Shown here in pieces: positions 14,216-49,415 of a stretch of 64,000 nt of DNA. Numbering within the stretch: the stretch's first letter is position 1; every line of letters starts with the position of its first letter. The stretch spans positions 3,872,001 through 3,936,000 of the forward strand of contig CBDCWI010000002.1 in the NCBI GenBank assembly GCA_965223325.1, in the 5' to 3' direction. Source of the DNA: Candidatus Multivoradales bacterium. GTDB taxonomy: Bacteria; Acidobacteriota; Thermoanaerobaculia; Multivoradales; Multivoraceae. The notes under the pieces were generated by a model. It had not been told where the DNA came from. It saw only the letters and a program-made list of their open reading frames with translations, and made no database searches. A program made the position numbers and the translations under genes.

Positions 14216-14345
14216 CTGACACCTGCTTGCTCAGTTGCAGTTGCTGTGTTGCGCGGGCGCGGACGGCCAGGTTCGCGTGGTGAGTTCGGGATTGTGAGGA
14301 TGTGCCAGGCCGCCCTTTCGGAGTTGGCTTGCGCTCGTGTGTGGG

Positions 14346-14382
14346 GTGAGGGGGGTGTACGCTCGTGCTTCGCACATCGCGC
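14346..14382 (+). repeat. Dispersed repeat core motif, copy 1
   Basis: GTGAGGGGGGTGTACGCTCGTGCTTCGCACATCGCGC, near-identical to copies at about 40.4, 40.6 (reverse), 46.85 and 47.0 kb. Confidence 0.9.
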
Positions 14383-14496: not shown

Positions 14497-15249
14497 ATGG
14501 GTTTTCGCTGGATGGTTGGAGTGACGGTGGTTATTGTTCTTGGTTGTGCTCCGGTCGTGAAGGAGTCGGCTGAGTCTTCGGGGCCGGCGGCCTCTGCCCT
14601 GCCAGGGGCCCGCTTGCAGCCGGGCACCGAGCTGGGGATCTATGCGCCGGAGCAGCACATGCCCTATGACGGGCGCTTCCGGATTCGGGGCTCTTCGATC
14701 TTCCAAGTGGGGACGCTCTCGGACCCGTCACCCTGGGACCACATGGGGGACGACGCGGCGTCGTTGCGCCCGGTGGAGGGGATCGTGGAGTTCGATGTCG
14801 ATGAGATCAACAACACGGGGACCTTTCGGGCGGCGCTCGACTTGCCCGAGGGGCACTACGTGGTGGAGCTCGAGGAGGTGGTTGAGTTTTCGCCGTGTCA
14901 GGACGGGGGCATCGCGGCGTTCATCTTTGAGCACGGCGATGCGGGGTGTGGAGACAGCAACTGGCCCAAGAGCCTCCTCTATGTCGCCGGCTGGGGCACG
15001 GGCAAGGCCACCCTCGACGGTGAACTGCTCTACCAGGACTACCAGATCCACTTCATGGTTACCCAGGGCATGCGTGATCGCGAGACACTCGAGGTCTTTG
15101 CGAATCCCGAGCGCTCGGGCCCAGGGGCCGTGAATCCGGCCGCGCAGCAGCTCGACTTCTATATCCGGAGTCCCGAGAAGAACGCCGAGAACCATCCTCA
15201 GCGTGAGGTCTTTGACCACTTCTTCGCCATGGAAGTGGCTTGGCGCTAG
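14497..15249 (+). CDS. Putative lipoprotein, unknown function
   Basis: VLGC lipobox-like; globular composition; GGGAGG SD upstream. Confidence 0.75.
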   Translation: MGFRWMVGVTVVIVLGCAPVVKESAESSGPAASALPGARLQPGTELGIYAPEQHMPYDGRFRIRGSSIFQVGTLSDPSPWDHMGDDAASLRPVEGIVEFDVDEINNTGTFRAALDLPEGHYVVELEEVVEFSPCQDGGIAAFIFEHGDAGCGDSNWPKSLLYVAGWGTGKATLDGELLYQDYQIHFMVTQGMRDRETLEVFANPERSGPGAVNPAAQQLDFYIRSPEKNAENHPQREVFDHFFAMEVAWR

Positions 15250-34708: not shown

Positions 34709-35260
34709 ATGAACAAACCCCGCCAGCCAGCCGACCCAGCCCCATCTGATTCGATCGGAGATCCCGTCGATCGCCGTCTCGATCTTCTCTTGGGTGAGCT
34801 GGTTGTTCCTGTCGAATCAGGCTTCACCGAGCAGGTCATGCGCCGGGTCATGGCTCGGGAGCCGGAGGTCCTGCCTTCGGTCGACTGGTTTGGCGAGTCC
34901 GAAGCGAGTCGCGGTCGATTGTTGGCTCGCCCTGGTTGGCTGGCAGCCGGACTGCTGGCCGCCTTCCTTGGAATCGCCGCTGTACTCGGAGGGTTAGGTG
35001 GCGGCTCGGCCTCCGCCTCGGTGCTCGCTGCGCTGACTGACTTCGCTGGAACCTCACTAGCAGCAGGTGCCGGTCTGCTCGGCGCTTCCTGGCAGGGCAT
35101 AGGCGGTGTGCTCGCGGCCTGGCTCGGTGAGTCGATCTGGAACCTGCTGCTCTTCGGTGGCGTTGTCCTCGGCCTCGACGTCTTGTTCTTCATGATGATT
35201 CGCCGTCGCCGCCACAGCGCTTCGGTTACAGCTTCAACGCGACTGAGCGACCCAGACTGA
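34709..35260 (+). CDS. Membrane protein, probable anti-sigma factor
   Basis: GFTEQVMRRV motif typical of anti-sigma N-termini plus 2-3 TM segments; directly after the ECF gene. Confidence 0.6.
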   Translation: MNKPRQPADPAPSDSIGDPVDRRLDLLLGELVVPVESGFTEQVMRRVMAREPEVLPSVDWFGESEASRGRLLARPGWLAAGLLAAFLGIAAVLGGLGGGSASASVLAALTDFAGTSLAAGAGLLGASWQGIGGVLAAWLGESIWNLLLFGGVVLGLDVLFFMMIRRRRHSASVTASTRLSDPD

Positions 35261-35324
35261 GCGACCCAGACTGAGCGACCCAGACTGAGCGACCCAGACT
35301 GAGCGACCGGCACTGAGCGACCCC
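35241..35324 (+). repeat. 14-bp tandem repeat, 6 units
   Basis: (GACTGAGCGACCCA)x4 followed by GACTGAGCGACCGG and CACTGAGCGACCCC. Confidence 0.95.
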
Positions 35325-35478
35325 GTTCGCCGGGCCTGGCACCGTGCCGGGGGGCGGCTTGCGAAGTCAACCAGGAACGAGGCCTCGAGGGTGTAGCGTT
35401 GACACCCTAGGGGTGCCCCCCGGCACCCGTGAGGACGTGAAGGAAACGTTCGCGGTGTACCGCTCGAGGAGAGCAGCT

Positions 35479-38467: not shown

Positions 38468-40180
38468 ATGCGTTGGAGCCAGTACTACCTGCACACCACC
38501 CGTGAAGTGCCTTCAGACGCGGAGGTCACCAGCCACCGCCTGATGATGCGCACCGGCATGCTGCGCAAGCACGCCGCCGGCATCTACACCTACCAGCCCT
38601 TCTTCTGGCGTAGCCTGCGCAAGTTGATGGAGATCGTGCGCACCGAGCTCGACCGCGCCGGCGCGATTGAGCTGGCGATGCCCTTTGTGCAGCCGGCCGA
38701 GCTGTGGCGCGAGTCTGGTCGTTGGCGCGAGTACGGGCCGGAGCTCCGCCGCCTCGAAGATCGACACGAGCGCGACTTCTGTCTCGGCCCGACGCACGAG
38801 GAAATCATTACCGAGATCGTGCGTCGCGACGTACGCAGCTATCGCCAGCTGCCGGTGAACCTGTACCAGATTCAGACCAAGTTCCGCGACGAGGTACGGC
38901 CGCGTTTCGGTGTCATGCGGGCGCGCGAGTTCATCATGAAAGACGCCTACTCGTTCCACACCGACGAGGCGAGTCTCGACGAGGCCTACAGGGCGATGCA
39001 CGATGCCTACTGCAAGATCTTCGAGGCCTGCGGGCTCGACTACATCGTCGTCGAGGCCGACACCGGCTCGATCGGCGGTTCCTCGTCGCATGAGTTCATG
39101 GTGGTCGCCGAAACCGGCGAAGACGCGGTGGTGCGCTGCCCGGGTTGCGACTACGCGGCAAACGTCGAGAAGGCGACTACACGACTCTCTGCTTTTGCCG
39201 GAACAGGTGACGCGGGCGAGACCTACGAGACGGTCGACACGCCGGGCAAGGCAACGGTCACCGACGTTGCGGCGCAGTTGGGCATTGAGCCCTCCCAGAT
39301 GGTCAAGACCCTGATCTACGAGACCGATGCCGGTCTCGTTGCGGTGGCAATCCGCGGCGACCGCGAGATCAACGAGATCAAGCTCAAGAACGAAACCGGC
39401 GCCGAGTGGATCCGCCTCGCCGAGCCAGCTCAGGTAAAGCGCGCCACCGGCGCCCCCGTAGGCTTCGCCGGCCCCGTAGGTCTCGCAGACGACGTCCGCC
39501 TGCTTGCCGACCTGTCGACCGAAACCGACAAGAGCTTCGCCTGCGGCGCCAATGCCAACGACCAGCACCTCACCGGCGTGCAGTGGAAGCGCGACGCAAG
39601 TCCAGAGAAGTTCATCGACGTACTGCTGGTAGGCGCCGGCGACCTTTGCCCGAAGTGCGGCGAGCACCCTCTGGAGCTCTTCCGTGGCATAGAAGTCGGT
39701 CATATTTTCAAGCTCGGCACCAAGTACTCAGAAGCCATGGGTTGCAACTTCGCCGACGAAGACGGCCAGGACAAGCCGATGCTGATGGGCTGCTATGGCC
39801 TAGGGGTTACCCGCACGATCGCTGCGGCAATAGAGCAGGGAAACGACGACAACGGCATCATCTGGCCCCTGCCCCTGGCCCCCTTCCAGATCACCCTCCT
39901 GTCACTCAACGCCTCAAAAGACGAAGCAGTGCGCGAAGCCGCCGACGACCTGTACGAGACCTTGAAGGCGGCCAACTGGGAGGTGTTGTATGACGACCGT
40001 CCTGAGCGTCCAGGCGTCAAGTTCAAAGATGCCGATCTACTCGGAATCCCGCTGCGGTTGGTTGTTGGTGGGCGCTCGTTGGCTGAAGGCAACGTTGAGT
40101 TGGTGGAGCGTCGAGGCGGCGAGAAGGAGATGGTCGCTGTCGGTGATGTCTTGGCCGAAGCGGAACGTCGTTTGGGCTGA
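38468..40180 (+). CDS. proS: Proline--tRNA ligase with editing (INS) domain
   Basis: LGPTHEE, QTKFRDEVRPRFGVMRAREF, GIEVGHIFKLG, MGCYGLG. Confidence 0.97.
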   Translation: MRWSQYYLHTTREVPSDAEVTSHRLMMRTGMLRKHAAGIYTYQPFFWRSLRKLMEIVRTELDRAGAIELAMPFVQPAELWRESGRWREYGPELRRLEDRHERDFCLGPTHEEIITEIVRRDVRSYRQLPVNLYQIQTKFRDEVRPRFGVMRAREFIMKDAYSFHTDEASLDEAYRAMHDAYCKIFEACGLDYIVVEADTGSIGGSSSHEFMVVAETGEDAVVRCPGCDYAANVEKATTRLSAFAGTGDAGETYETVDTPGKATVTDVAAQLGIEPSQMVKTLIYETDAGLVAVAIRGDREINEIKLKNETGAEWIRLAEPAQVKRATGAPVGFAGPVGLADDVRLLADLSTETDKSFACGANANDQHLTGVQWKRDASPEKFIDVLLVGAGDLCPKCGEHPLELFRGIEVGHIFKLGTKYSEAMGCNFADEDGQDKPMLMGCYGLGVTRTIAAAIEQGNDDNGIIWPLPLAPFQITLLSLNASKDEAVREAADDLYETLKAANWEVLYDDRPERPGVKFKDADLLGIPLRLVVGGRSLAEGNVELVERRGGEKEMVAVGDVLAEAERRLG

Positions 40181-40232
40181 TTCGGGTTGTAGCGTTGATG
40201 TGGCGTGCCGTTGGCGTGGAGGTGTGCCAGGT

Positions 40233-40456
40233 CGCCGGGTGAGAACGGGGGACGTGCGCCTTCCGCGCCGCTCCAAGGCTGGTGTCGCGATGCAGTTCAG
40301 GTTGCTGACTGGGATCGTGTCATCGGCTTCGCCCTGATGGGAAGCGGCTGACCGCTCCCTGGACGCACGTCCCCCGCCCTCACCCTCTCGGTGTGATTCA
40401 CGGCCGTCAATGTGGTGGGGGGGGTGCACGCTCGTGCTTCGCACATCGCACTTGCT
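40233..40456 (+). repeat. Dispersed repeat, long copy 2 (stem plus core motif)
   Basis: Collinear with 46669-46890; stem arms 40237-40260 and 40361-40385; core motif 40412-40449. Confidence 0.85.
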
Positions 40457-40585
40457 CTTCTGGGTAGTGGCGGCGACCCGGAGCCTGGGTGTTTGTACTT
40501 GTGGTCTGAAGTCGACGTTCGGTGAGCCCATCGAGTTAGCCGACTCGGTCTCGAGAATGCAGGTATGTCTCCAGCTTGGCCGCGG

Positions 40586-40671
40586 GCGCGATGTGCGAAG
40601 CACGAGCGTGCACCCCCCTCACCACACCCGGGGGGCAGCTCGGACAGCCCTGAGGGTTTCTCACCCGGCGC
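40586..40671 (-). repeat. Dispersed repeat, short inverted copy 3
   Basis: Reverse complement reads GCGCCGGGTGAGAAAC...GTGAGGGGGGTGCACGCTCGTGCTTCGCACATCGCGC. Confidence 0.9.
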
Positions 40672-40920
40672 ACGCCTAACCGCACCCCAATCCCGCCACC
40701 GTTCCACCAAGAGAATCCATCAAGAAAACAACCAACACCCTGATAACCTAAGAAACCCGTGATGGACGAATCCTCTGAATCCGCCTCCGAACCACCGTCT
40801 AGAAACACCTACGACGGCCAGCACGCGACTGAGTCCCCACGGATCGCAGCCACGCAGCGCGCGCTAGAACCAGTCCCGCCGCTCGCTAGAGCCTGCTCGC
40901 CGGACTAGTTCCCTGTCCTG

Positions 40921-42312
40921 ATGAGTCAAACCTGGCTGGCTCTTGCCAGCAATCATGTTGAGACGGGGATGAGTCCCTGGGTGAGCGTTCTGCTTGCCGG
41001 CGTGTTGATCTTGATCAACGGCTTCTTCGTGGCGGCGGAGTTCGCGCTCGTCAAGGTGCGCTCGACCCAGCTCGAGCCCATGCGCGGAACCAAGCGCGGC
41101 GACCTGGCGCTCAAGATGCTCGACAACATCGACGCCTACCTCTCGGCATCGCAGTTGGGGATCACGCTTGCCAGTCTGGCGCTGGGTTGGATCGGTGAGC
41201 CGGCCTTTGCGTGGATTTTCGAGTCGATGTTTGGTGGGCTCGAGCTTCCGGAGCCCACCAGCCGGCTGCTGAGCGTTGTGTTGGCTTTCGTGACCATCAC
41301 CGCGTTACATATCGTCATCGGCGAGCAGGCGCCAAAGGCGATGGCGATTCGTCGGCCACGGCGCACTTCGGTCTTCGCTACCGTTCCGCTCTACGTCTTC
41401 TACATCGTCACCTACCCTGCGATCTGGCTCCTGAACGGAATGGCCAACGGCTTCCTGATGCTGTTCGGGGTCAAACCGGCGCGCGAGGGTGAGTTGGCGG
41501 TCAGCGAAGAGGAGATCCGTCAGATTCTCGCCGACGAGCACGAGAGCCGCCTGACCGAGGAGAAGCGCGAACTGCTCGACAACGTGTTCGAGCTCTCCGA
41601 TCGCATTGCTCGACACGTCATGGTGCCGCGTTCGGAGGTTGTCTTCCTCGACATCATGCTCTCGGTCGAAGAAAACCTCGAGACCGCCCGCGCCAGCGGT
41701 CACACCCGCTTTCCGCTTTGTGAAGAAGATCTCGACCATGTGCTCGGCATCGTGCACATCAAAGATCTCTTCCGAGCCAACAATCCACCCGCCGCGCTCG
41801 AAGACGTGCGGCGCGACACGTTCTTCGTGCCCGAAACCCAGTCGCTCGACGAGGTGCTCAGGCGCATGCGCACAGAACGCATTCACATGGCGGCCGTGCT
41901 CGATGAGTACGGCGGCATCAGCGGCATCATCACGCTCGAGAACATCATCGAAGAGATCGTTGGCGAGATTCAAGACGAGTTCGATTACGAGCTTCCCGAG
42001 GTCGTCAAAGAGTCCGAGGGGGTGTTCGAGGTCCAAGGCTCGACGTTGATCCGCGACCTCGAAGACGTGATTGGTGTCGACATCGCCTCCGGTGAGCGCG
42101 AAGAAGACACGGTCGCCGGCGCCGTTCTCTCCGAGCTCGGCCGTCGCGGTCAGGTAGGCGACAAGGTCGATGTCGGTCCGCTGTCGATCGTGGTGCGTGA
42201 GATCGACCACAACCGCATCGCCGCCGTGCAGGTGACGGTCAAAGACGCGATGGGCGAGGAGCTCGAGGAAAAGGTCGTCGAAGGTCTGGGGCCGGGGCGC
42301 GGCGCGCTTTAG
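40921..42312 (+). CDS. CNNM/TlyC family protein (DUF21 + CBS pair + CorC domain)
   Basis: NGFFVAAEFALV, QLGITLASLALGW.GEP, GEQAPK, VMVPR, DEYGG..G..TLENIIEEIVGEI.DE. Confidence 0.93.
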   Translation: MSQTWLALASNHVETGMSPWVSVLLAGVLILINGFFVAAEFALVKVRSTQLEPMRGTKRGDLALKMLDNIDAYLSASQLGITLASLALGWIGEPAFAWIFESMFGGLELPEPTSRLLSVVLAFVTITALHIVIGEQAPKAMAIRRPRRTSVFATVPLYVFYIVTYPAIWLLNGMANGFLMLFGVKPAREGELAVSEEEIRQILADEHESRLTEEKRELLDNVFELSDRIARHVMVPRSEVVFLDIMLSVEENLETARASGHTRFPLCEEDLDHVLGIVHIKDLFRANNPPAALEDVRRDTFFVPETQSLDEVLRRMRTERIHMAAVLDEYGGISGIITLENIIEEIVGEIQDEFDYELPEVVKESEGVFEVQGSTLIRDLEDVIGVDIASGEREEDTVAGAVLSELGRRGQVGDKVDVGPLSIVVREIDHNRIAAVQVTVKDAMGEELEEKVVEGLGPGRGAL

Positions 42313-42323
42313 GGGGCCGGACG

Positions 42324-42680
42324 GTGACTGAGGAGCATCACCAGTTCCGCGGCGGTCGCAAGCTGACGTGGCGGGTCGCCCGCTTGATCGAGTTGGCGCG
42401 TGAACTTCCCGTAGGAGAGAAGGCGCTCGCAGAGATCGACGAGTTCGACTCGGTCTATTGGTTCGACGACTCCTGGAAGCCGACTTGTCGCGCGGTCACG
42501 GAGCACGCGCTGCGCATCGAGCGCGCCAATCTCGACGCTCCGATCATCCTCTCCGAGCGTGGCCTGGTCATGGACGGCATGCACCGGGTCGCAAAGGCCC
42601 ATCTGCTCGGTCACCAAACGATCAAAGCGGTCCAGTTCCCTGTCGACCCGGATCCGGACGCTGAGGCAGAGATTCGATGA
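42324..42680 (+). CDS. Small ParB/sulfiredoxin-like domain protein
   Basis: PIIL..G.VMDGMHRVAKA motif; 118 aa. Confidence 0.65.
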   Translation: MTEEHHQFRGGRKLTWRVARLIELARELPVGEKALAEIDEFDSVYWFDDSWKPTCRAVTEHALRIERANLDAPIILSERGLVMDGMHRVAKAHLLGHQTIKAVQFPVDPDPDAEAEIR

Positions 42681-42699
42681 CCGGGTCGCGAGTCTGTCG

Positions 42700-42783
42700 A
42701 AGCGCGCTCGAAACGGAACCCGGCATTCGGTGACGGTGTTTCCGATCTCGTCGAAGTGGTCCCAGCCGCGGGTCTCGAGCGTG
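42700..42783 (-). pseudogene. Displaced, frameshifted copy of the ilvA 3' end
   Basis: Direct repeat of 43910-43992 with a 34-bp identical core; encodes TLETRGWDHFDEIGNTVTE / AGFRFERA with a 1-nt insertion. Confidence 0.88.
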
Positions 42784-43007
42784 GGACAACAGCCACCCGC
42801 TCGTTCCATTCCTCCAAGGCATGTGCTGGCGGTACGACGGAAAGCGACTCGAGGTCGTCTGGATCCGGCCAGGAGTTGGGAGTTGGCAGTTGGGCGAGGG
42901 AGTTTCGCGATGGCGGCGAGGACGACATCGACCTCGAGGAGAACGCCCAACTGACTGTCCCCTTACGAGCCTGAAACCAAGAGGGGAGACCAGGCCCAAC
43001 AAGAGGC

Positions 43008-43403
43008 TCACCAGATCAACGACAACCCGAACGTTTCAAGGGGGGCATCACGGCTGACCAGCGGCATGTTCTCAATGGAACTCTGTGCAGCGAGCATCCG
43101 GTCAAACGGATCGCGATGCGGCTGCGACCAATGTCCCGCTCTCTCTGCGTGTTGGATCGTGACAGCAAGCTCGCTGAGACCTGCACGGGACACCCAGCCA
43201 GCGATGTCCTGGACCAGCGTGTCAGCGCTCGGAAGCTTCCCGATCCTATGTTTGGTGCTGATCTCCCAGGCACTGGCGCTGGAGACAAAGATCTGGTTCG
43301 CCGGATCCTCAATGATCCGATAGGCCTTCTTCGAGAGCCTTGAGTCGTCGAACAACCACCACAAGAGAGTGTGCGTGTCGAGCAGGAACTTCAGCTTTCC
43401 CAC
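43008..43403 (-). CDS. vapC: PIN-domain toxin (VapC family)
   Basis: LLDTHTLLWW, SSASAWEI..K, HRDPFDRMLAAQ, LVSRD. Confidence 0.93.
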   Translation of the reverse strand: MGKLKFLLDTHTLLWWLFDDSRLSKKAYRIIEDPANQIFVSSASAWEISTKHRIGKLPSADTLVQDIAGWVSRAGLSELAVTIQHAERAGHWSQPHRDPFDRMLAAQSSIENMPLVSRDAPLETFGLSLIW

Positions 43404-43615
43404 GCCGCCAACTCCTCCTCGGGCAGCGGGTCAAAGAAGCTGTCATCGAGAGTCCCCACGAGAAGTCCGGGCTGGCGTTTCTCGGGAGGCGCCAGTGGGC
43501 AGAGCCTCGCGTAAGGCTTCCCGTTCTTTGAAATGACCACCTCTTCGCCTGCCTTCGCCCGTTCGAGCAGCCGGGAGAGGTGCGTCTTCGCTTCGTGGAC
43601 ATTGATCGTCTTCAT
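43391..43615 (-). CDS. Phd/YefM-family antitoxin
   Basis: MKTINVHEAKTHLSRLLE..GEEVVI..GKP.ARL; overlaps the toxin start. Confidence 0.93.
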   Translation of the reverse strand: MKTINVHEAKTHLSRLLERAKAGEEVVISKNGKPYARLCPLAPPEKRQPGLLVGTLDDSFFDPLPEEELAAWES

Positions 43616-43621
43616 CCAACG

Positions 43622-43650
43622 AGATTAGTCCACAAGAAAGACTAAGTCAA
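43622..43650 (-). promoter_or_regulatory. TA promoter (probably leaderless) with overlapping operator
   Basis: Minus strand TTGACT-17nt-TAATCT, 6 nt before ATG; inverted repeat TTAGTC-N9-GACTAA at 43625-43645. Confidence 0.75.
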
Positions 43651-43907
43651 CCAGATCTCTCCTGCGCCGGCCTCGGCTGGTAGGGAGCGGGGCCTCGCCG
43701 TTCCAGAGGACCTATTCGAGCTCTCCGACGCGCTCAGAGGATTCGACGGTGCGGAAGGTGCGCCACAGGTGAACCCAACGCAGAAGCGACTGCCTCAGGT
43801 TCCTGAATAGTGACGACGAGGCGTATGAAGTTGTTGTTCTTGCAGCCGCGACCAGGCGCACCTGTCGAAGTGGGTGGGTGGATACCGAGGCGTCAGGGCC
43901 GCGGAGC

Positions 43908-45116
43908 CTAAGCACGCTTGAAGCTGAAGCCAGCTTCGGTGACGGTACTTCCGATCTCGTCGAAGTGGTCCCAGCCGCGGGTTTCGAGGGTGAGCTCGAC
44001 GACGACGTCGCCGAGAGCGGCGTTTCCGAAGGTGCGTTGGTGGTGAACTTCGATGACGTTGGCTTCTGTGTCGGCTACCAGTTGGAGCAGTGACGCGAGG
44101 GCGCCGGGGCGGTCGCGGATCGTGACCTCGACTTGGATCATGCGGCCGTCTTTGGCCAGGCCGCGTTCGATGATCCGCGACAGGACGTTGACGTCGATGT
44201 TGCCGCCGCCAAGCACCATGGCGACGTTCTTGCCCTCGATGTCACCGAGGCGGCCGTTCATGACGGCGGCGAGTGCGGCGGCGCCGGCGCCCTCGGCGAC
44301 GGTCTTTTCTCGCTCGAGCAGCAGCAGAATCGCGTTGGCGATTTCTTCTTCGCCGACGGTGACGATCTCGTCGACGTGTTTGGCGACCATTTCGAGCGTC
44401 AACTGGCCGGGTTGCTTGACCGCGATGCCGTCGGCGAGGGTAACCGCGGGTTCCAGGCGCGTCGGTCTACCGGCCTCGACGCTCCGTTTCATCGACGGCA
44501 GCACGCGGGCCTCGACGCCGACGATGCGCACCTTGGGGCGCAGCGACTTGTAAGCGGCGGCGATGCCGGCAATCAAGCCACCGCCGCCGATCGGGACGAC
44601 GACCACGTCGAGTGCTGGCTGCTGCTCCATCATTTCGAGCGCGATGGTGCCCTGACCGGCGATGATCATCGGGTCGTCGAAGGGGTGCACGAAGGTGAAG
44701 CCATGCTCCTCCTCGAGCTCGCGGGCGCGGGCGTAGGCTTCGTCGAAGTCGGTGCCCTCGAGGCGTACGTCGGCCCCGAAGCTACGTGTGTTCGACACCT
44801 TGATAAGCGGCGTGCTCTCGGGCATCACGATGACCACCGGAAGGCCGAGGACGCCGGCGTGATAGGCGACGGCCTGGGCGTGGTTGCCGGCCGAGGCGCA
44901 GATCAGGCCGGCGGCGCGCTCTTTGTCGCCGAGGGTAGCGAGGCGGTTGAGGGCGCCGCGCTCCTTGAACGATCCAGTGCGTTGCAGGTTCTCGAGTTTG
45001 AGGAAGGCGTTCAGGCCGCAGGTCTTCGAGAAGTACTCGGAGCGCGGGCACGGCGTCAGGTAGACCGCATCGCCCAGCCGCTCGCGCGACTGCATGATCT
45101 CTTCGAGTCCAACCAT
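43908..45116 (-). CDS. ilvA: Threonine ammonia-lyase (medium form with one ACT domain)
   Basis: KLENLQRTGSFKERGA, ASAGNHAQ, HPFDD..AGQGT, PIGGGGL, C-terminal ACT (DRPGAL..LETRG). Confidence 0.92.
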   Translation of the reverse strand: MVGLEEIMQSRERLGDAVYLTPCPRSEYFSKTCGLNAFLKLENLQRTGSFKERGALNRLATLGDKERAAGLICASAGNHAQAVAYHAGVLGLPVVIVMPESTPLIKVSNTRSFGADVRLEGTDFDEAYARARELEEEHGFTFVHPFDDPMIIAGQGTIALEMMEQQPALDVVVVPIGGGGLIAGIAAAYKSLRPKVRIVGVEARVLPSMKRSVEAGRPTRLEPAVTLADGIAVKQPGQLTLEMVAKHVDEIVTVGEEEIANAILLLLEREKTVAEGAGAAALAAVMNGRLGDIEGKNVAMVLGGGNIDVNVLSRIIERGLAKDGRMIQVEVTIRDRPGALASLLQLVADTEANVIEVHHQRTFGNAALGDVVVELTLETRGWDHFDEIGSTVTEAGFSFKRA

Positions 45117-45145
45117 TGGCGGATGCTATCCCGCCGGCTTTCTCG

Positions 45146-46351
45146 TTACGGGTTGCGTTGGGCCAGAACGGGGGCGGTTGCCGCGAAGCGAGCGGTGTGA
45201 GTCTGATTCGCTGCGTTTCTCAGGCGGTGCAAGCGGCGAAACTCCGCATACGCCTCGCGCGCGAGGTCACCGTCGCCGCGCGCGGCGAGAGCTGAGCGGC
45301 GACGCAGCCAGGCGGTGGGGAACCCCGGGTTGAGCGCGATGGCGCGATTGGCCGATTCGAGTGCGTCGTCCAGCTGCCCGGCCAACAACTGCACGCTGGC
45401 GAGGTTCGAATGCACGATCGGTTCGGTGTCTTTGGTGTCGAGGGCAAGCAGAAAGGTCGCGCGAGCGGCGTCGAGATGACCGAGCTCGCGCTGTGCCAGG
45501 CCGAGGTTGTTGAGCGCGCCGAGACTTCGCGGGGTGATCTGGAGGGCCTGCTGCGCATAGAAGAGCGCATCGTTTGGGCGACCGGCATGGATCAGTCGTG
45601 CCGAGGCGAGCTCCCAGGTGTTGGCCAGAATCTCTCGCCAGCCGCCAAGGAGCGTCGCTCGCTCGTGGCGCTCGGCTTCGAGCGCTCGGGCATAGCGCTC
45701 TGCGTCGTGCCACTGCAGGCTGGTGCGTTTTCCGGTGCGCGCCGGAACGTTCATGTCGGCGATGCGCAGAGTGCCACCTTGTCGGATGGCGAGTGCCATG
45801 TGGTCGGAGTGGCTGACCGCGAAGGTGTTCTCGATGAGGGACGCTGCCGGATCGCGTTGATCAATCGCTTCGAGCGTTGCGTACACCGCCAGGACGGCGG
45901 CATCGCAGTCGAGCTCGATGGGTGCCTGATCGAACGGAACGCCGAGGTGGCGTGAGAAGAGGTCGATGAACAGGTGGTTGTTGCCGGTTCCGCGAAGCAT
46001 CCGGACTCCGGCTTTTGTCCAGCCGGCCTGGACTTGTTCGATGATCTGGGCGAGTTCGATCTCCTGCGTGACCACTTCGGCTGCAACCTGGTCGCGTAGG
46101 GAGGTGAATGTCTCCCAGGCTAGCTGGGCACGATCAGCGGCCTCGGGTTCGTCGGAGAGGCTTTTCTCGATCCAGAATTTGGCTTTGAGGCCCTGGTCGG
46201 CGTCGAGCAGTCGCTGGACTTCGGCCACCAGGGTTCGATGCGCTGGTGGCAAGGGGACTTCTGGAGCGGCGGCGTTGAGAGGCGCTAGCGGCAGAAGGGT
46301 GAGGGCACTGATGAGAGCAAGAGATGAGAAAGCAGCCGAATGGGTGGTCAT
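45146..46351 (-). CDS. Exported TPR protein with possible transglutaminase-like N-terminal domain
   Basis: Signal peptide; DCD..H..D pattern; C-terminal TPRs (ALNNLGLA, HSNLA). Confidence 0.7.
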   Translation of the reverse strand: MTTHSAAFSSLALISALTLLPLAPLNAAAPEVPLPPAHRTLVAEVQRLLDADQGLKAKFWIEKSLSDEPEAADRAQLAWETFTSLRDQVAAEVVTQEIELAQIIEQVQAGWTKAGVRMLRGTGNNHLFIDLFSRHLGVPFDQAPIELDCDAAVLAVYATLEAIDQRDPAASLIENTFAVSHSDHMALAIRQGGTLRIADMNVPARTGKRTSLQWHDAERYARALEAERHERATLLGGWREILANTWELASARLIHAGRPNDALFYAQQALQITPRSLGALNNLGLAQRELGHLDAARATFLLALDTKDTEPIVHSNLASVQLLAGQLDDALESANRAIALNPGFPTAWLRRRSALAARGDGDLAREAYAEFRRLHRLRNAANQTHTARFAATAPVLAQRNP

Positions 46352-46599
46352 TGGGTGCCGGCGACAACCGACTTAAGGGTGGGTGGGCCTCGCGGTCGCG
46401 GCGTCGTACCTCCGTTTCTTTGAATGTCTTGGGCCCGGTATTGGGCGGCGATGACCTATAGAAGCAAGATGTATACCAGTTATACGAGATAATGGATTGG
46501 TGGATTCAAGCTGTTGGAGTGCCAAGAATCGGGAGTTCGTGCCGGCTGTCTTGCCGTCTTTTGGTTGTTTCTGGATGTTGGATGGGTGGATGGTTGGTC

Positions 46600-46641
<42 letters not shown>

Positions 46642-46668
46642 TGGTGGGGGGGTGTGGGTCTGGAAGGG

Positions 46669-47046
46669 CGCCGGGTTCGAAACCTGGGGCGTGCGCCTTC
46701 CGCGACGGTCCTCGGCTGGTTCTTGGGTGCTGGTTCGGTATGGGGCTGCAGGTCTTTTGGGCGTCGCCTTGATGGTTGCCGCCTGACTGCTCCCTGGCGC
46801 ACGCCCCAGGCTCCGAACCCTCTCGTTGTATGCCCCGCCCGCTCAGTTTGAGGGGGGGTGTGCGCTCGTGCTCCGCACATCGCGCTTGCTGGTTCTTGGG
46901 TGCTGGTTCGGTATGGGGCTGCAGGTCCTTTCGGCGTCGCCTTGATGGTTGCCGCCTGACTGCTCCCTGGCGCACGCCCCAGGCTCCGAACCCTCTCGTT
47001 GTTTGCCACGCCCGCTCAGTTGAGGGGGGGTGGGCGCTCGTGCTTC
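46669..47046 (+). repeat. Dispersed repeat copies 4 and 5 (173-bp tandem duplication)
   Basis: 46715-46887 is repeated nearly identically at 46888-47046; stem arms 46673-46697 and 46796-46820; core motif at 46849-46885, truncated core at 47021-47046. Confidence 0.9.
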
Positions 47047-47053
47047 AGGCAAA

Positions 47054-47082
47054 TTGACACCCCAGAACGGCTCTGCTAATTT
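47054..47082 (+). promoter_or_regulatory. Sigma70 promoter of the tRNA-Val/thrS operon
   Basis: TTGACA-17nt-TAATTT with extended TG and a GC-rich discriminator (GCGCG). Confidence 0.75.
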
Positions 47083-47184
47083 GCGCGTTCTTCGGTGACA
47101 GCCGCCACTTGAATCTGGGGTTCTTCGGATCTCCTCGGTTCGAGTACCCCTCCAGGACGTCCCAGGCTTTGGTTGCCGATGAAT

Positions 47185-47261
47185 AGGCCCGTAGCTCAGC
47201 TGGTTAGAGCGCTACGTTGACATCGTAGAGGTCAGCGGTTCGAGTCCGCTCGGGCCTACCA
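47185..47261 (+). tRNA. tRNA-Val(GAC)
   Basis: 77-nt cloverleaf: acceptor AGGCCCG/CGGGCCT, anticodon arm CTACG-TTGACAT-CGTAG, TTCGA T-loop, encoded CCA. Confidence 0.97.
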
Positions 47262-47351
47262 GTGCGCGATCCAGGTGGGTCGGCTACTTGTTCAGGGCAG
47301 TCAGGCTTGGGTGTTGCTCGGGTCTTTTGCCCTTCTTTGGTGTCCGTACAG

Positions 47352-47428
47352 AGGCGCTTAGCTCAGCTGGTTAGAGCGCTACCTTCACACGGTAGAGGTC
47401 AGCGGTTCGAGTCCGCTAGCGCCTACCA
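47352..47428 (+). tRNA. tRNA-Val(CAC)
   Basis: 77-nt cloverleaf: acceptor AGGCGCT/AGCGCCT, anticodon arm CTACC-TTCACAC-GGTAG, encoded CCA. Confidence 0.97.
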
Positions 47429-47480
47429 GGCCGCCTGTGGGCCTGGCGTGCGGCCCCTACGCTCCCTTCCGTTTTCCGTC

Positions 47481-49415
47481 ATGACCACCAACCAAGCCAT
47501 CGCTCTCACGCTGCCTGACGGCTCGGTGCGTGAGGTTCCTGCCGGTTCGTCGCCGGCGGATGTTGCGGCGTCGATTGGGCCGGGTCTGGCGAAGGCTTCT
47601 GTTGGGGCTTCTCTGAACGGGGAGGTCGTTGACTTGCGCACGCCGCTTCATGAGGGCGGTGACTTTGCGTTGTTTACGACGAAGAGTCCCGAGGCGGGGG
47701 ATTTCGTGCGCCATACGGCTGAGCATGTTCTGGCCGATGCGGTGCAGCGCTTGTGGCCCGGTACGGAGATCGATGCGGGTCGCCAGGATCACTCGGAGAA
47801 GTTTCAGTACGACTTCCGCTTCGCGCGCCCTTTCACGGCTGAGGATCTCGAGAAGATCGAGAAGAAGATGCGCGAGATCGTCAAGGAGAAGCTGCCACTC
47901 GAGCGTCTCGAGGTGACGCGCGAGGAGGCTCGTGAGTTGATGAAGGAGCGCGGCGAGAACCTCAAGCTCGAGCGCCTCGACGACATTCCCGAGGGCGAGG
48001 CGATTACGCTCTATAAGCACGGCGAGTTCGTTGACCTGTGTCGGGGGCCGCATGCGCAGACAACGGGACAGATCGGGGCGCTCAAGCTGCTCGAGAGCTC
48101 GGTGGTGTACTTCCGGGGCGACGAGGCGAATGAGCGCCTGCAGCGCATCTACGGCACGGCGTTTCTCACCAAGCAGGAGATGGCCGACTACGAGGAGCGC
48201 ATGGAACTGGCGCGGGCGCGGGACCATCGGCGGCTTGGGCCGGAGCTCGATCTCTTCAGTTTCAGCGAGCACGCGCCGGGCAGTCCGTTCTTCCATCCCC
48301 GGGGGACGGTGGTCTACAACTTGTTGGTCGGGTACATCCGCGAGCTGCTTTTGCGGGGCGGCTACGGCGAGGTGCGGACGCCCTTGATTCTCGATGAGGA
48401 GCTTTGGCACCGCTCGGGCCATTGGGACAACTATCGCGACAATATGTACTTCGTCGACATCGACGAGCGGCGCTACGCGGTCAAGCCGATGAACTGCCCG
48501 ACGCACTGTTTGATCTTCGGTACCCGCCTGCGCTCCTACCGCGACCTACCGATTCGTTACGCTGACTTCGGTCACCTGCATCGGTACGAACGGAGCGGCG
48601 TGATCTCAGGCCTGACGCGGGTGCGTACCTTTTGCCAGGACGATGCGCACGTGTTCTGCACCGAGGAGCAGATCGAGAGCGAAGTGCTGGGGTTGATTGG
48701 CACGATTCAGGAGATCTACGACACGTTCGGCTTCGGCGAGGTCGGGATCGAGCTGTCGACTCGCCCGGAGAAGGCGATCGGCACGGCCCAGATGTGGGAT
48801 CGCGCCGAGGCTGCCCTCTCTGCGGCGCTCGAGAGCGCTGGCATCGACTATGTGGTCAATGAGGGTGACGGTGCCTTCTATGGCCCGAAGATCGACTTCC
48901 ACATCCACGACACGCTGGGACGCTCCTGGCAACTGGGTACCGTCCAGCTCGACTACCAGATGCCTGAGCGCTTCGATCTCGACTACGTCGGTGCGGATGG
49001 CTCGGGTCACCGCCCGGTGATGATCCATCGCGCCATGTTGGGTTCGGTCGAGCGCTTCATGGGCATTCTCATCGAGCACGCCGGCGGCGCCTTTCCGCTG
49101 TGGCTGGCGCCAGTGCAGGCGATGATTCTACCGGTGTCGGACAAGTTCCAGGACTATGCCGCCACCGTCCGTGATCAGCTCATCGCCAAGGGCCTGCGGG
49201 CAGAGGTCGATGAGCGCTCGGAGAAGCTGGGCTACAAGATTCGCGAAGCCCAACTCCAGAAGATCCCCTACATGTTGATCGTCGGTGCGCGAGAGGCCGA
49301 GGAGGCGACGATCTCGGTGCGGTTGCGGGCGGGAGAGGAGCTCGGCGGCATGTCGGTCGATGACTTCGCGGAGCGCACGCGACCGCTAGTCGAAAGCCGC
49401 AGCCTGGAGCTCTAG
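47481..49415 (+). CDS. thrS: Threonine--tRNA ligase
   Basis: TGS N-terminus, DLCRGPH, LQRIYG, RDHR, KPMNCP.H, RYERSG, GAFYGPKID, IHRA.LGS.ERF. Start reset to ATG 47481 because the longer ORF overlaps a tRNA. Confidence 0.97.
   Translation: MTTNQAIALTLPDGSVREVPAGSSPADVAASIGPGLAKASVGASLNGEVVDLRTPLHEGGDFALFTTKSPEAGDFVRHTAEHVLADAVQRLWPGTEIDAGRQDHSEKFQYDFRFARPFTAEDLEKIEKKMREIVKEKLPLERLEVTREEARELMKERGENLKLERLDDIPEGEAITLYKHGEFVDLCRGPHAQTTGQIGALKLLESSVVYFRGDEANERLQRIYGTAFLTKQEMADYEERMELARARDHRRLGPELDLFSFSEHAPGSPFFHPRGTVVYNLLVGYIRELLLRGGYGEVRTPLILDEELWHRSGHWDNYRDNMYFVDIDERRYAVKPMNCPTHCLIFGTRLRSYRDLPIRYADFGHLHRYERSGVISGLTRVRTFCQDDAHVFCTEEQIESEVLGLIGTIQEIYDTFGFGEVGIELSTRPEKAIGTAQMWDRAEAALSAALESAGIDYVVNEGDGAFYGPKIDFHIHDTLGRSWQLGTVQLDYQMPERFDLDYVGADGSGHRPVMIHRAMLGSVERFMGILIEHAGGAFPLWLAPVQAMILPVSDKFQDYAATVRDQLIAKGLRAEVDERSEKLGYKIREAQLQKIPYMLIVGAREAEEATISVRLRAGEELGGMSVDDFAERTRPLVESRSLEL

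Follow-up and report, generated by a model that had tools for sequence, protein, structure and literature searches.

Can a short intergenic repeat set the strand composition of the genes beside it? This question is raised by a stretch of 64,000 nucleotides from the genome of a Candidatus Multivoradales bacterium (assembly GCA_965223325.1; hereafter the window), in which copies of a repeat with the core CGCTCGTGCTTCGCACATCGC lie close to DNA with an unusual strand bias. The first-pass annotation of the window had proposed that a local skew follows the orientation of this repeat, leaks into neighbouring genes and reflects strand-asymmetric mutation of the flanking DNA. The four line counts that it gave for G+T, 51 of 60 nt at 46561-46620, 11 at 40681-40740, 44 at 14521-14580 and 40 at 47581-47640, are exact. 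Among 60-nt windows of the whole genome the mean is 29.3 (standard deviation 4.2), and the fractions of windows at or beyond these counts are 3.9e-5 (>=51), 1.05e-4 (<=11), 8.4e-4 (>=44) and 8.5e-3 (>=40). Analysis of all genomic copies established the skew itself and three of its properties: it affects silent sites in a strand-wise manner, is lineage-specific and varies with array size.

The genome (6.69 Mb, 64% G+C) consists of two contigs, C1 and C2, and the window corresponds to C2:3872001-3936000; coordinates without a prefix are window positions, and those prefixed with C1: or C2: are contig positions. A simple home-made codon-likelihood caller yielded 5076 genes (89% coding). According to the cumulative skew, the origin lies near C2:3.45 Mb and the terminus close to C2:0.3 Mb, and the minus strand is leading in the entire C1. 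Third-codon-position G+T (keto3) on the coding strand is 0.49-0.50 in leading-strand genes and 0.41-0.42 in lagging-strand genes, with little change at gene ends. For every flank of the repeat, a z score was calculated from the nearest 300 nt of the flanking gene by comparing keto3 on the motif strand with that of a class of genes matched for gene end and replication strand. As controls we used 771 motif-free intergenic regions of at least 280 nt, oriented by the leading strand and resampled in sets of 17 (100000 draws).

Structure and distribution of the repeat

A genome search allowing up to 3 mismatches identified 35 copies of the core at 18 loci, 25 of the copies being exact. One locus is present twice via an inverted duplicate (C2:1-30 kb and C1:29.6-60.5 kb), so that 17 loci are independent, and in 14 of these the motif has the leading-strand orientation (binomial p=0.013). 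The core, usually preceded by GGTGAGGGGGGTG, contains two palindromes that can be read from the sequence, GCACG-CT-CGTGC and GTGC-TTC-GCAC. The element as a whole is a mosaic: the core is preceded by a C-rich 'type A' module, by a 'type B' long hairpin, or by a short module. Six aligned copies of the type B hairpin have 65 predicted pairs, of which 28 stay paired via changes on both sides. Head-to-tail arrays are common (periods of 46, 90-92, 100-201, 112, 157-158 and 173 nt) and are made up of a run of seven to nine G, the palindromic 21-nt core and small hairpins, often with the long covarying hairpin on the 5' side.

The modules adjoining the core have diverged to 52-93% identity, whereas the core is identical in 25 of the 35 copies. 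Thus, the loci are old and the core is under constraint, which is consistent with a sequence recognised by something. Among the 31 genomes searched, the motif was found in this genome alone, and not in a relative of the same genus whose genome is 99% complete. Two readings of the repeat were tried and rejected: an association with tRNA genes, since just two independent loci have a tRNA within 1.5 kb, and a sigma-54 site in the core, where the GG/GC spacing, judged by eye, is wrong.

The duplicated locus belongs to a segmental inverted duplication of about 30 kb (C2:1-30000 versus C1:29579-60543, 95.7-99.3% identity) with a tRNA-Arg gene and a phage-type integrase. In this integrase island the motif array has five units in one copy and two in the other. 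Head-to-tail intergenic units of tens to hundreds of nt, present in different numbers in different alleles, are characteristic of bacterial minisatellites, or variable-number tandem repeats of the MIRU-like kind; with its periods and the unequal unit numbers of the two paralogous copies, the repeat behaves as such a minisatellite.

Strand skew in the flanks of the repeat

The profile of third positions around all copies, a check proposed in the first-pass annotation, revealed a skew well above that of control intergenic sites. Over the 17 independent loci, the mean flank z is +1.05 upstream and +1.92 downstream; these means were reached in 14 of the 100000 control draws upstream (P=1.4e-4) and in none downstream. 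Values of z of at least 2.5 were observed in 12 of the 34 motif flanks and in 3.0% of the control flanks. At many loci, keto3 in the nearest 300 nt amounts to 0.69-0.82, and z values go as high as +4.9.

Read in the orientation of the motif, the non-coding DNA 200-500 nt upstream has a G+T content of 0.65-0.69, and third-position G+T in the downstream genes stays at 0.59-0.69 for about 1.1 kb. In co-oriented downstream genes keto3 declines from 0.66 to 0.47 over 900 nt, and upstream genes are again at baseline within 150-300 nt of their end. The per-locus profiles have two lobes, from about -1000 to -100 and from +200 to +1400, and the element itself is unskewed. The domains span about -1 kb to +1.4 kb (about 2.4 kb), with the arrays at the centre. 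Runs of at least four G occur in the domains at 6.0 per kb on the motif strand and 2.5 on the other strand, compared with 2.9 genome-wide. A count made without gene calls gave the same association: in the whole genome, a G+T content of at least 0.68 on one strand is attained by just 25 clusters of 300-nt windows, and nine of these strongest islands lie within 1 kb of eight motif loci, where about 0.2 would be expected.

The strength of the skew depends on the number of repeat units. The mean flank z is 2.53 for arrays of at least two units (n=9) and 0.32 for single copies (n=8; Mann-Whitney p=0.011), and array size correlates with skew (Spearman rho 0.58, or 0.81 without the duplicated integrase island locus). 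The integrase-island array, a young copy, has unskewed flanks (z 0.3), in keeping with a skew that accumulates in place with time. Tandem arrays, and not single copies, are the main carriers of the effect.

Silent-site and strand-wise character of the skew

Near the element, the third positions on the motif strand lose C (from 0.42 to 0.30) and A (from 0.085 to about 0.045) and gain G (from 0.35 to 0.44-0.48) and T (from 0.14 to 0.21), and the shift in G+T at codon positions 1 and 2 is small (from about 0.52 to 0.54-0.56). In two-fold codons of co-oriented flanks, T/(C+T) is 0.390 versus 0.258 (p=1.6e-7) and G/(A+G) is 0.857 versus 0.764 (p=3e-4). In opposite-sense flanks the same ratios on the coding strand are mirrored, 0.091 versus 0.192 and 0.531 versus 0.709, respectively. 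Four-fold sites likewise shift to G/T on the motif strand, with the mirrored shift in opposite-sense genes. Since both two-fold classes shift and opposite-sense flanks mirror them, the skew is a property of the DNA strand and not of amino acids, codon preference or expression. The proposed strand-asymmetric change of the flanking DNA is partly supported: it holds as far as the strand is concerned, but mainly for tandem arrays.

An ordinary or artefactual origin of the skew, in amino acid usage, codon preference of highly expressed genes, foreign DNA or faulty gene calls, is very improbable and already largely refuted. Part of the G+T of line 14521-14580 is indeed due to hydrophobic residues, the end of proS resembles its orthologues, and thrS and the adjacent tRNA genes are likely to be highly expressed. 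However, genes of opposite sense carry the skew on the same DNA strand, it is missing from orthologues that share the tRNA-thrS arrangement, and the island count is independent of gene calls. The flanking genes are ordinary ones whose Pfam domains extend to their skewed ends. For amino acid composition and expression level, which the first-pass annotation had named as possible confounders, the opposite-sense genes, the two-fold codons and the orthologues all argue that they do not explain the skew.

A further possibility is that selection maintains the composition because a G/T-rich strand is useful, for example in RecA pairing around an oriented signal or, as the source of a C-rich, G-poor antisense RNA, in Rho loading. 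Chi-like signals are G-rich and biased to the leading strand, as is the motif, and the core is strongly conserved; the norm for Chi-type signals is one per few kb, and the 35 copies of the motif fall far below it. One study reports that RecA binds preferentially to TGG-type repeats, which resemble Chi (PMC3763553). Under this explanation, selection would have to act on each of hundreds of silent sites as far as 0.9 kb away, whereas the smooth decay with distance and the equal effect in both transition classes are as a mutation bias predicts. We consider selection on composition quite improbable.

Comparison with orthologous genes

A skewed gene segment in the window is the 5' part of thrS (300 codons, 47481..48380, plus strand), where keto3 in successive bins is 0.67, 0.83, 0.80, 0.63 and 0.70 and reaches about 0.5 by codon 300, and the number of T-ending codons drops along the gene from 8-11 to 2-4 per 30 codons. 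Codons 1-150 are strongly skewed. Of 11 relatives, six could be parsed for thrS, and all six have the same order tRNA-Val/tRNA-Val/thrS; their bins are mostly 0.43-0.60, with single bins of 0.30, 0.67 and 0.70. Four other genes that flank the repeat gave the same result. The 3' end of an enoyl-CoA hydratase gene has values of 0.82, 0.72 and 0.72 (0.30-0.56 in two relatives), that of a gene for an AMP-binding enzyme 0.80, 0.84 and 0.64 (0.40-0.60 in four relatives), and that of a CitMHS transporter gene 0.74, 0.78 and 0.82 (0.30-0.66 in eight relatives). A convergent GCS2 gene of opposite sense has 0.10-0.27 on its coding strand over 180 codons (0.33-0.63 in seven relatives). The skew is therefore lineage-specific: the orthologues of all five genes lack it, in relatives where the motif was not found.

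The end of proS does not belong to this group. The first-pass annotation had noted a switch from C/A-rich to G/T-rich codons there, and keto3 of the last 60 codons (40001..40180, plus strand) is indeed 0.60 and 0.60, compared with 0.30-0.43 further upstream; both values fall within the range of ten orthologues (0.43-0.67 and 0.23-0.67). Only the number of T-ending codons (7-9 per 30) is rather high. Substitution spectra against sister genomes were another proposed check; the nearest relative is only about 75% identical to this genome at the nucleotide level in thrS, so the silent sites are saturated for such a spectrum.

The orthologues also bear on the order of cause and effect. The repeat might insert into, or expand in, DNA that is already G/T-rich, possibly through single-stranded DNA transposition onto an exposed lagging template or through slippage in G/T microsatellites. 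A bias of the motif to the leading strand, the presence at each locus of its own G/T-rich micro-repeats next to a stop codon, and a correlation of array size with skew, expected if both grow in the same permissive DNA, would all fit such a course. In the relative of the same genus, however, the ends of the orthologous genes show no pre-existing skew for five of five genes. The loci are old, as judged from the modules (52-93% identity), so the skew and the element have long coexisted. Overall, we regard this reversed or common causation as unlikely.

A transposase that could carry out the first of these routes is abundant in the genome. The Y1 HUH transposase family (PF01797) has 28 matches, 25 of them over the cut-off, in open reading frames of 300-333 amino acids, and this abundance counts in favour of the repeat having been inserted. 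No Y1 gene, however, is flanked by the motif: the motif modules fam9 and fam12 were found within 600 nt of 0 of the 23 PF01797 matches that have a gene call. Many Y1 genes are flanked by their own repeat modules (fam8 and fam11), and others by nothing. Many of the matches are clustered in tandem close to two contig ends (at C2:4.455-4.487 Mb and at C1:2.126-2.144 Mb), and other copies are scattered. Arrays of 9-nt repeats of the (TTCCCGGGC)n type, with about 100 members in the genome, include one that adjoins the best Y1 match at C1:1306077.

Replication direction and other repeat families

The G/T richness of the leading strand of bacterial chromosomes is ascribed mainly to cytosine deamination in the single-stranded template (PMC2031905). 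The skew around the repeat is of the same type: it favours G over C and T over A at silent sites, affects both transition classes and is independent of gene sense. Its direction is that of the leading/lagging difference of this genome. Unlike replication asymmetry, it is local, centred on the arrays and about twice as large as the whole leading/lagging difference, and in at least two places it follows a copy lying against replication.

We therefore considered whether replication alone could produce the pattern, as an ordinary leading-strand skew that is exaggerated locally, with the repeat merely sharing its orientation. The leading orientation of 14 of the 17 loci would agree with this, as would the G/T richness of the leading strand in 23 of the 25 strongest islands and the codon-class shifts, which run in the direction of the leading/lagging difference. 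Yet the leading strand alone is not enough, because leading-oriented control regions show no effect (mean z of about 0 in 646 repeat-free and 771 motif-free regions). In addition, the gene C2:1352415-1353728, which lies between two opposite copies, is skewed at each end to the strand of the adjoining copy (z +2.66 and +3.04), and the non-coding tract by the reverse copy of the window follows that copy. An explanation by replication only is thus unlikely. As for the claim that the skew follows the repeat orientation, two of the three lagging-strand copies partly follow the motif and one shows nothing; motif orientation and replication direction are hard to separate cleanly because so few independent loci lie on the lagging strand.

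Other repeat families provide a comparison, and in general they show a weaker, mirror-type flank pattern that is independent of the strand. About 110 'stop-codon-hugging' hairpins were found genome-wide (for example, C2:3622573-3624092, C2:4069360-4070788 and C2:3088160-3089055). The 5' arm of such a hairpin is the end of the upstream gene including its stop codon, and the 3' arm is the reverse complement and adjoins a conserved GTTACCACG...TGCGGCGCAAGCGGTCCG box. These elements frequently occur in tandem, and their loops are rich in G and T. Their flank skew is weak and mirror-type, with z from about -0.4 to -0.9 upstream and from +0.5 to +0.9 downstream.

A third hairpin family (GGGCGACGGTCC.GGGCACGGCGACGCTT...) has 19 copies, 12 of them in lagging orientation (for example, C2:453512-454297 and C1:856438-857252). 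In the 250 nt on the 5' side of these elements, G+T on the strand of the element is 0.59-0.63, irrespective of replication direction. For the 12 lagging-oriented copies the value is 0.59, which again speaks against replication as the sole cause. Hairpins in general were rejected as the cause of the skew, as large palindromic repeats resembling miniature inverted-repeat transposable elements have z of about 0; the absence of an effect at these repeats is likewise at odds with replication alone.

Repeat copies and other features of the window

Within the window, leakage of the skew into neighbouring genes was confirmed for thrS (codons 1-150), for the gene at 14497 and for a TPR gene. The thrS locus contains a two-unit tandem array on the plus strand (46715..47044, period 173 nt, 96% matches), with cores at 46845-46885 and, in degenerate form, at 47020-47044. 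It overlaps a type B long hairpin (46673..46820, plus strand) with arms at 46673-46697 and 46796-46820. On the 5' side is a locus-specific G/T-rich tract (46490..46660, plus strand), which contains line 46561-46620 and two micro-repeats, (TGGATGGT)x3.4 at 46572-46597 and (TCGTGG)x8 at 46600-46647, and for which a DNA search found no homologue at the other loci. Still further upstream, the first 100 codons of the divergent TPR gene (45929..46228, minus strand) have a keto3 of 0.71 on the plus strand, which is the motif strand, versus a background of 0.57 (z +2.36). Two tRNA-Val genes (gac and cac; 47185..47428, plus strand) lie between the array and thrS. A sequence TTGACA-17 nt-TAATTT at 47053-47081, noticed by eye and below the rule of our promoter scan, follows right after the last degenerate unit, about 100 nt before tRNA-Val, and may be the promoter of the tRNA genes and thrS.

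A single copy of the repeat, with G-run and conserved core, lies at 14342..14382 on the plus strand (core match at C2:3886360). The first 100 codons of the downstream gene (14497..14796, plus strand) have a keto3 of 0.69 (z +3.04) and include line 14521-14580. This line, cited in the first-pass annotation as an instance of leakage, lies in a gene that is skewed at third positions, but the count itself is partly an amino acid effect of a hydrophobic N-terminus, because G+T at positions 1 and 2 of codons 1-30 is 0.77.

Two further copies form an inverted pair, 138 nt apart, downstream of proS: the forward copy (copy 2) at 40411..40449, preceded by a type B long hairpin module at 40238..40400 (plus strand, identified by reading of the sequence and in the six-copy alignment), and the reverse copy at 40586..40627 on the minus, lagging strand. 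The non-coding tract at 40630..40920, on the 5' side of the reverse copy in that copy's orientation, is C/A-rich on the plus strand and G/T-rich on the minus strand; it contains line 40681-40740 and has an excess of +0.11 in the orientation of the motif. The genes beside the pair show no gene-level skew (z from -1.27 to +1.27).

Two further repeats were seen in the window. A 14-nt tandem array (GACTGAGCGACCCA) of about 6-7 units occupies 35227-35337. A 58-nt direct repeat (93% identity) is found at 42726-42783 and 43935-43992, 1209 nt apart; its second copy is located in the 3' part of a PALP-family gene (43908-45116, minus strand), and the repeat may be a gene-end remnant.

Possible mechanisms

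The pattern, which affects silent sites strand by strand, decays with distance, depends on array size and is lineage-specific, is most readily interpreted as a local mutation bias. We infer mutation rather than selection as the cause and single-strandedness as its driver. In the explanation that we prefer, and to which we assign about even confidence, the motif strand at the arrays would be recurrently single-stranded and subject to a deamination-type local mutation bias. Within the domain, the motif strand has gained G+T at the cost of C+A, most likely because changes of the C>T and A>G kinds were in excess on it, as deamination would cause in DNA that spends much time single-stranded. The process would act on the DNA strand and pass across the array, since the enrichment concerns one and the same strand on either side of the array and in genes of both orientations; it would not spread symmetrically from a break. 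Resection from a break is expected to produce opposite polarity on the two sides, whereas ten of the 17 loci are positive on both sides, none is positive upstream and negative downstream, four are negative upstream and positive downstream, and three are negative on both sides. The common polarity argues against resection.

Three sources of exposure can be envisaged. The strand could be exposed by displacement in R-loops or by heavy transcription across the G-run arrays, a possibility that we put forward with reserve, because the G7-9 runs at the core precede G-rich DNA and the skew reaches longer downstream; G clusters followed by a strand enriched in G runs are what characterises R-loop regions at the sequence level. 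Gaps in the lagging-strand template at the structured arrays would fit the predominantly leading orientation of the motif and the locus-specific G/T micro-repeats, although we consider this source doubtful. Strand displacement from a site-specific nick, for which the Y1 HUH transposase-like proteins might be candidates were any of them encoded beside the motif, appears improbable. As a more specific but tentative proposal, the invariant 21-nt core could be the recognition site of a strand-specific transaction, either nicking with displacement or an obligatory R-loop, which would turn the arrays into hot spots of single-stranded DNA that hypermutate one strand.

Several observations weigh against the explanation by single-strandedness of the motif strand. 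The loci are highly heterogeneous: seven of the 17 have at least one flank with negative z, and at one locus the values are -2.95 and -1.14. The C-rich type A module is unskewed amid several of the domains. The three lagging-strand copies gave mixed results, namely no skew at C2:3302743, a G/T-rich non-coding tract without gene-level skew at the reverse copy of the window, and a single skewed flank (z +2.66) at C2:1352390, which shares its gene with an oppositely oriented copy. At four-fold sites G rises as much as T (from 0.34 to 0.43), so that C>T alone is insufficient. The derived amino acid changes of thrS, as compared with 11 relatives, comprise just five inferable events in the skewed part. 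A sigma-70 consensus scan found no promoter-like site in either of the two intergenic regions scanned, and Rfam yielded tRNAs only (at the gathering score in the window and at E<=0.1 at 10 other loci). Finally, the gene calls are home-made, and four flanking genes are shared by two loci and thus counted twice.

Comparison with known systems and implications

Several known systems share features with these domains. Transcription-associated asymmetry and R-loop-prone G-skew are found at mammalian gene 5' ends, CpG-island promoters and immunoglobulin switch repeats. As in those regions, G clusters here are followed by a G-rich non-template strand, tandem repeats are present, one strand has an excess of G+T, and the skew decays in one direction over about 1 kb; unlike in those regions, the skew also extends upstream into divergently transcribed genes. 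In the heavy strand of animal mitochondrial DNA, the asymmetry increases with the time spent single-stranded. There, too, one strand loses A and C with a gradient over distance, but it is a property of the whole replicon tied to the mode of replication, whereas here it concerns a 2-kb chromosomal zone.

The repeat also resembles the REP/BIME/REPIN-RAYT elements, being a short palindromic intergenic repeat with some inverted pairs and mosaics in a genome rich in Y1 HUH genes. Membership in this class was rejected, as there are only 35 copies at 18 loci, where hundreds of imperfect palindromes of 20-40 bp would be expected, and no cognate Y1 gene is flanked by the motif; unlike REPs, the repeat forms tandem arrays with periods of 46-201 nt. 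Members of the REP/REPIN family have a conserved GTAG or CGTC tetranucleotide at one end (PMC3733652), and no GTAG or CGTC is present within the 21-nt core of the repeat. In a literature search at the abstract level, which did not extend to subscription journals, no account was found of skewed flanks at bacterial intergenic repeats, REP-like or otherwise.

Bacterial strand asymmetry is usually regarded as a feature of the whole chromosome, determined by replication and by the orientation of genes. In this genome, a small repeat array predicts a local domain of about twice the leading/lagging difference, which overrides gene orientation and is absent from the orthologues in relatives. If the core does direct a strand-specific transaction, about 2 kb of neighbouring housekeeping genes would be rewritten at silent sites, and the arrays would be a bacterial counterpart of immunoglobulin switch regions. 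If the skew is mutational, codon-usage and horizontal-transfer detectors would misread such segments as foreign, and non-coding repeats would be able to alter how fast essential neighbours such as thrS evolve and which codons they contain. The arrays would then be natural reporters of chronic single-strandedness, marking both the site and the strand.

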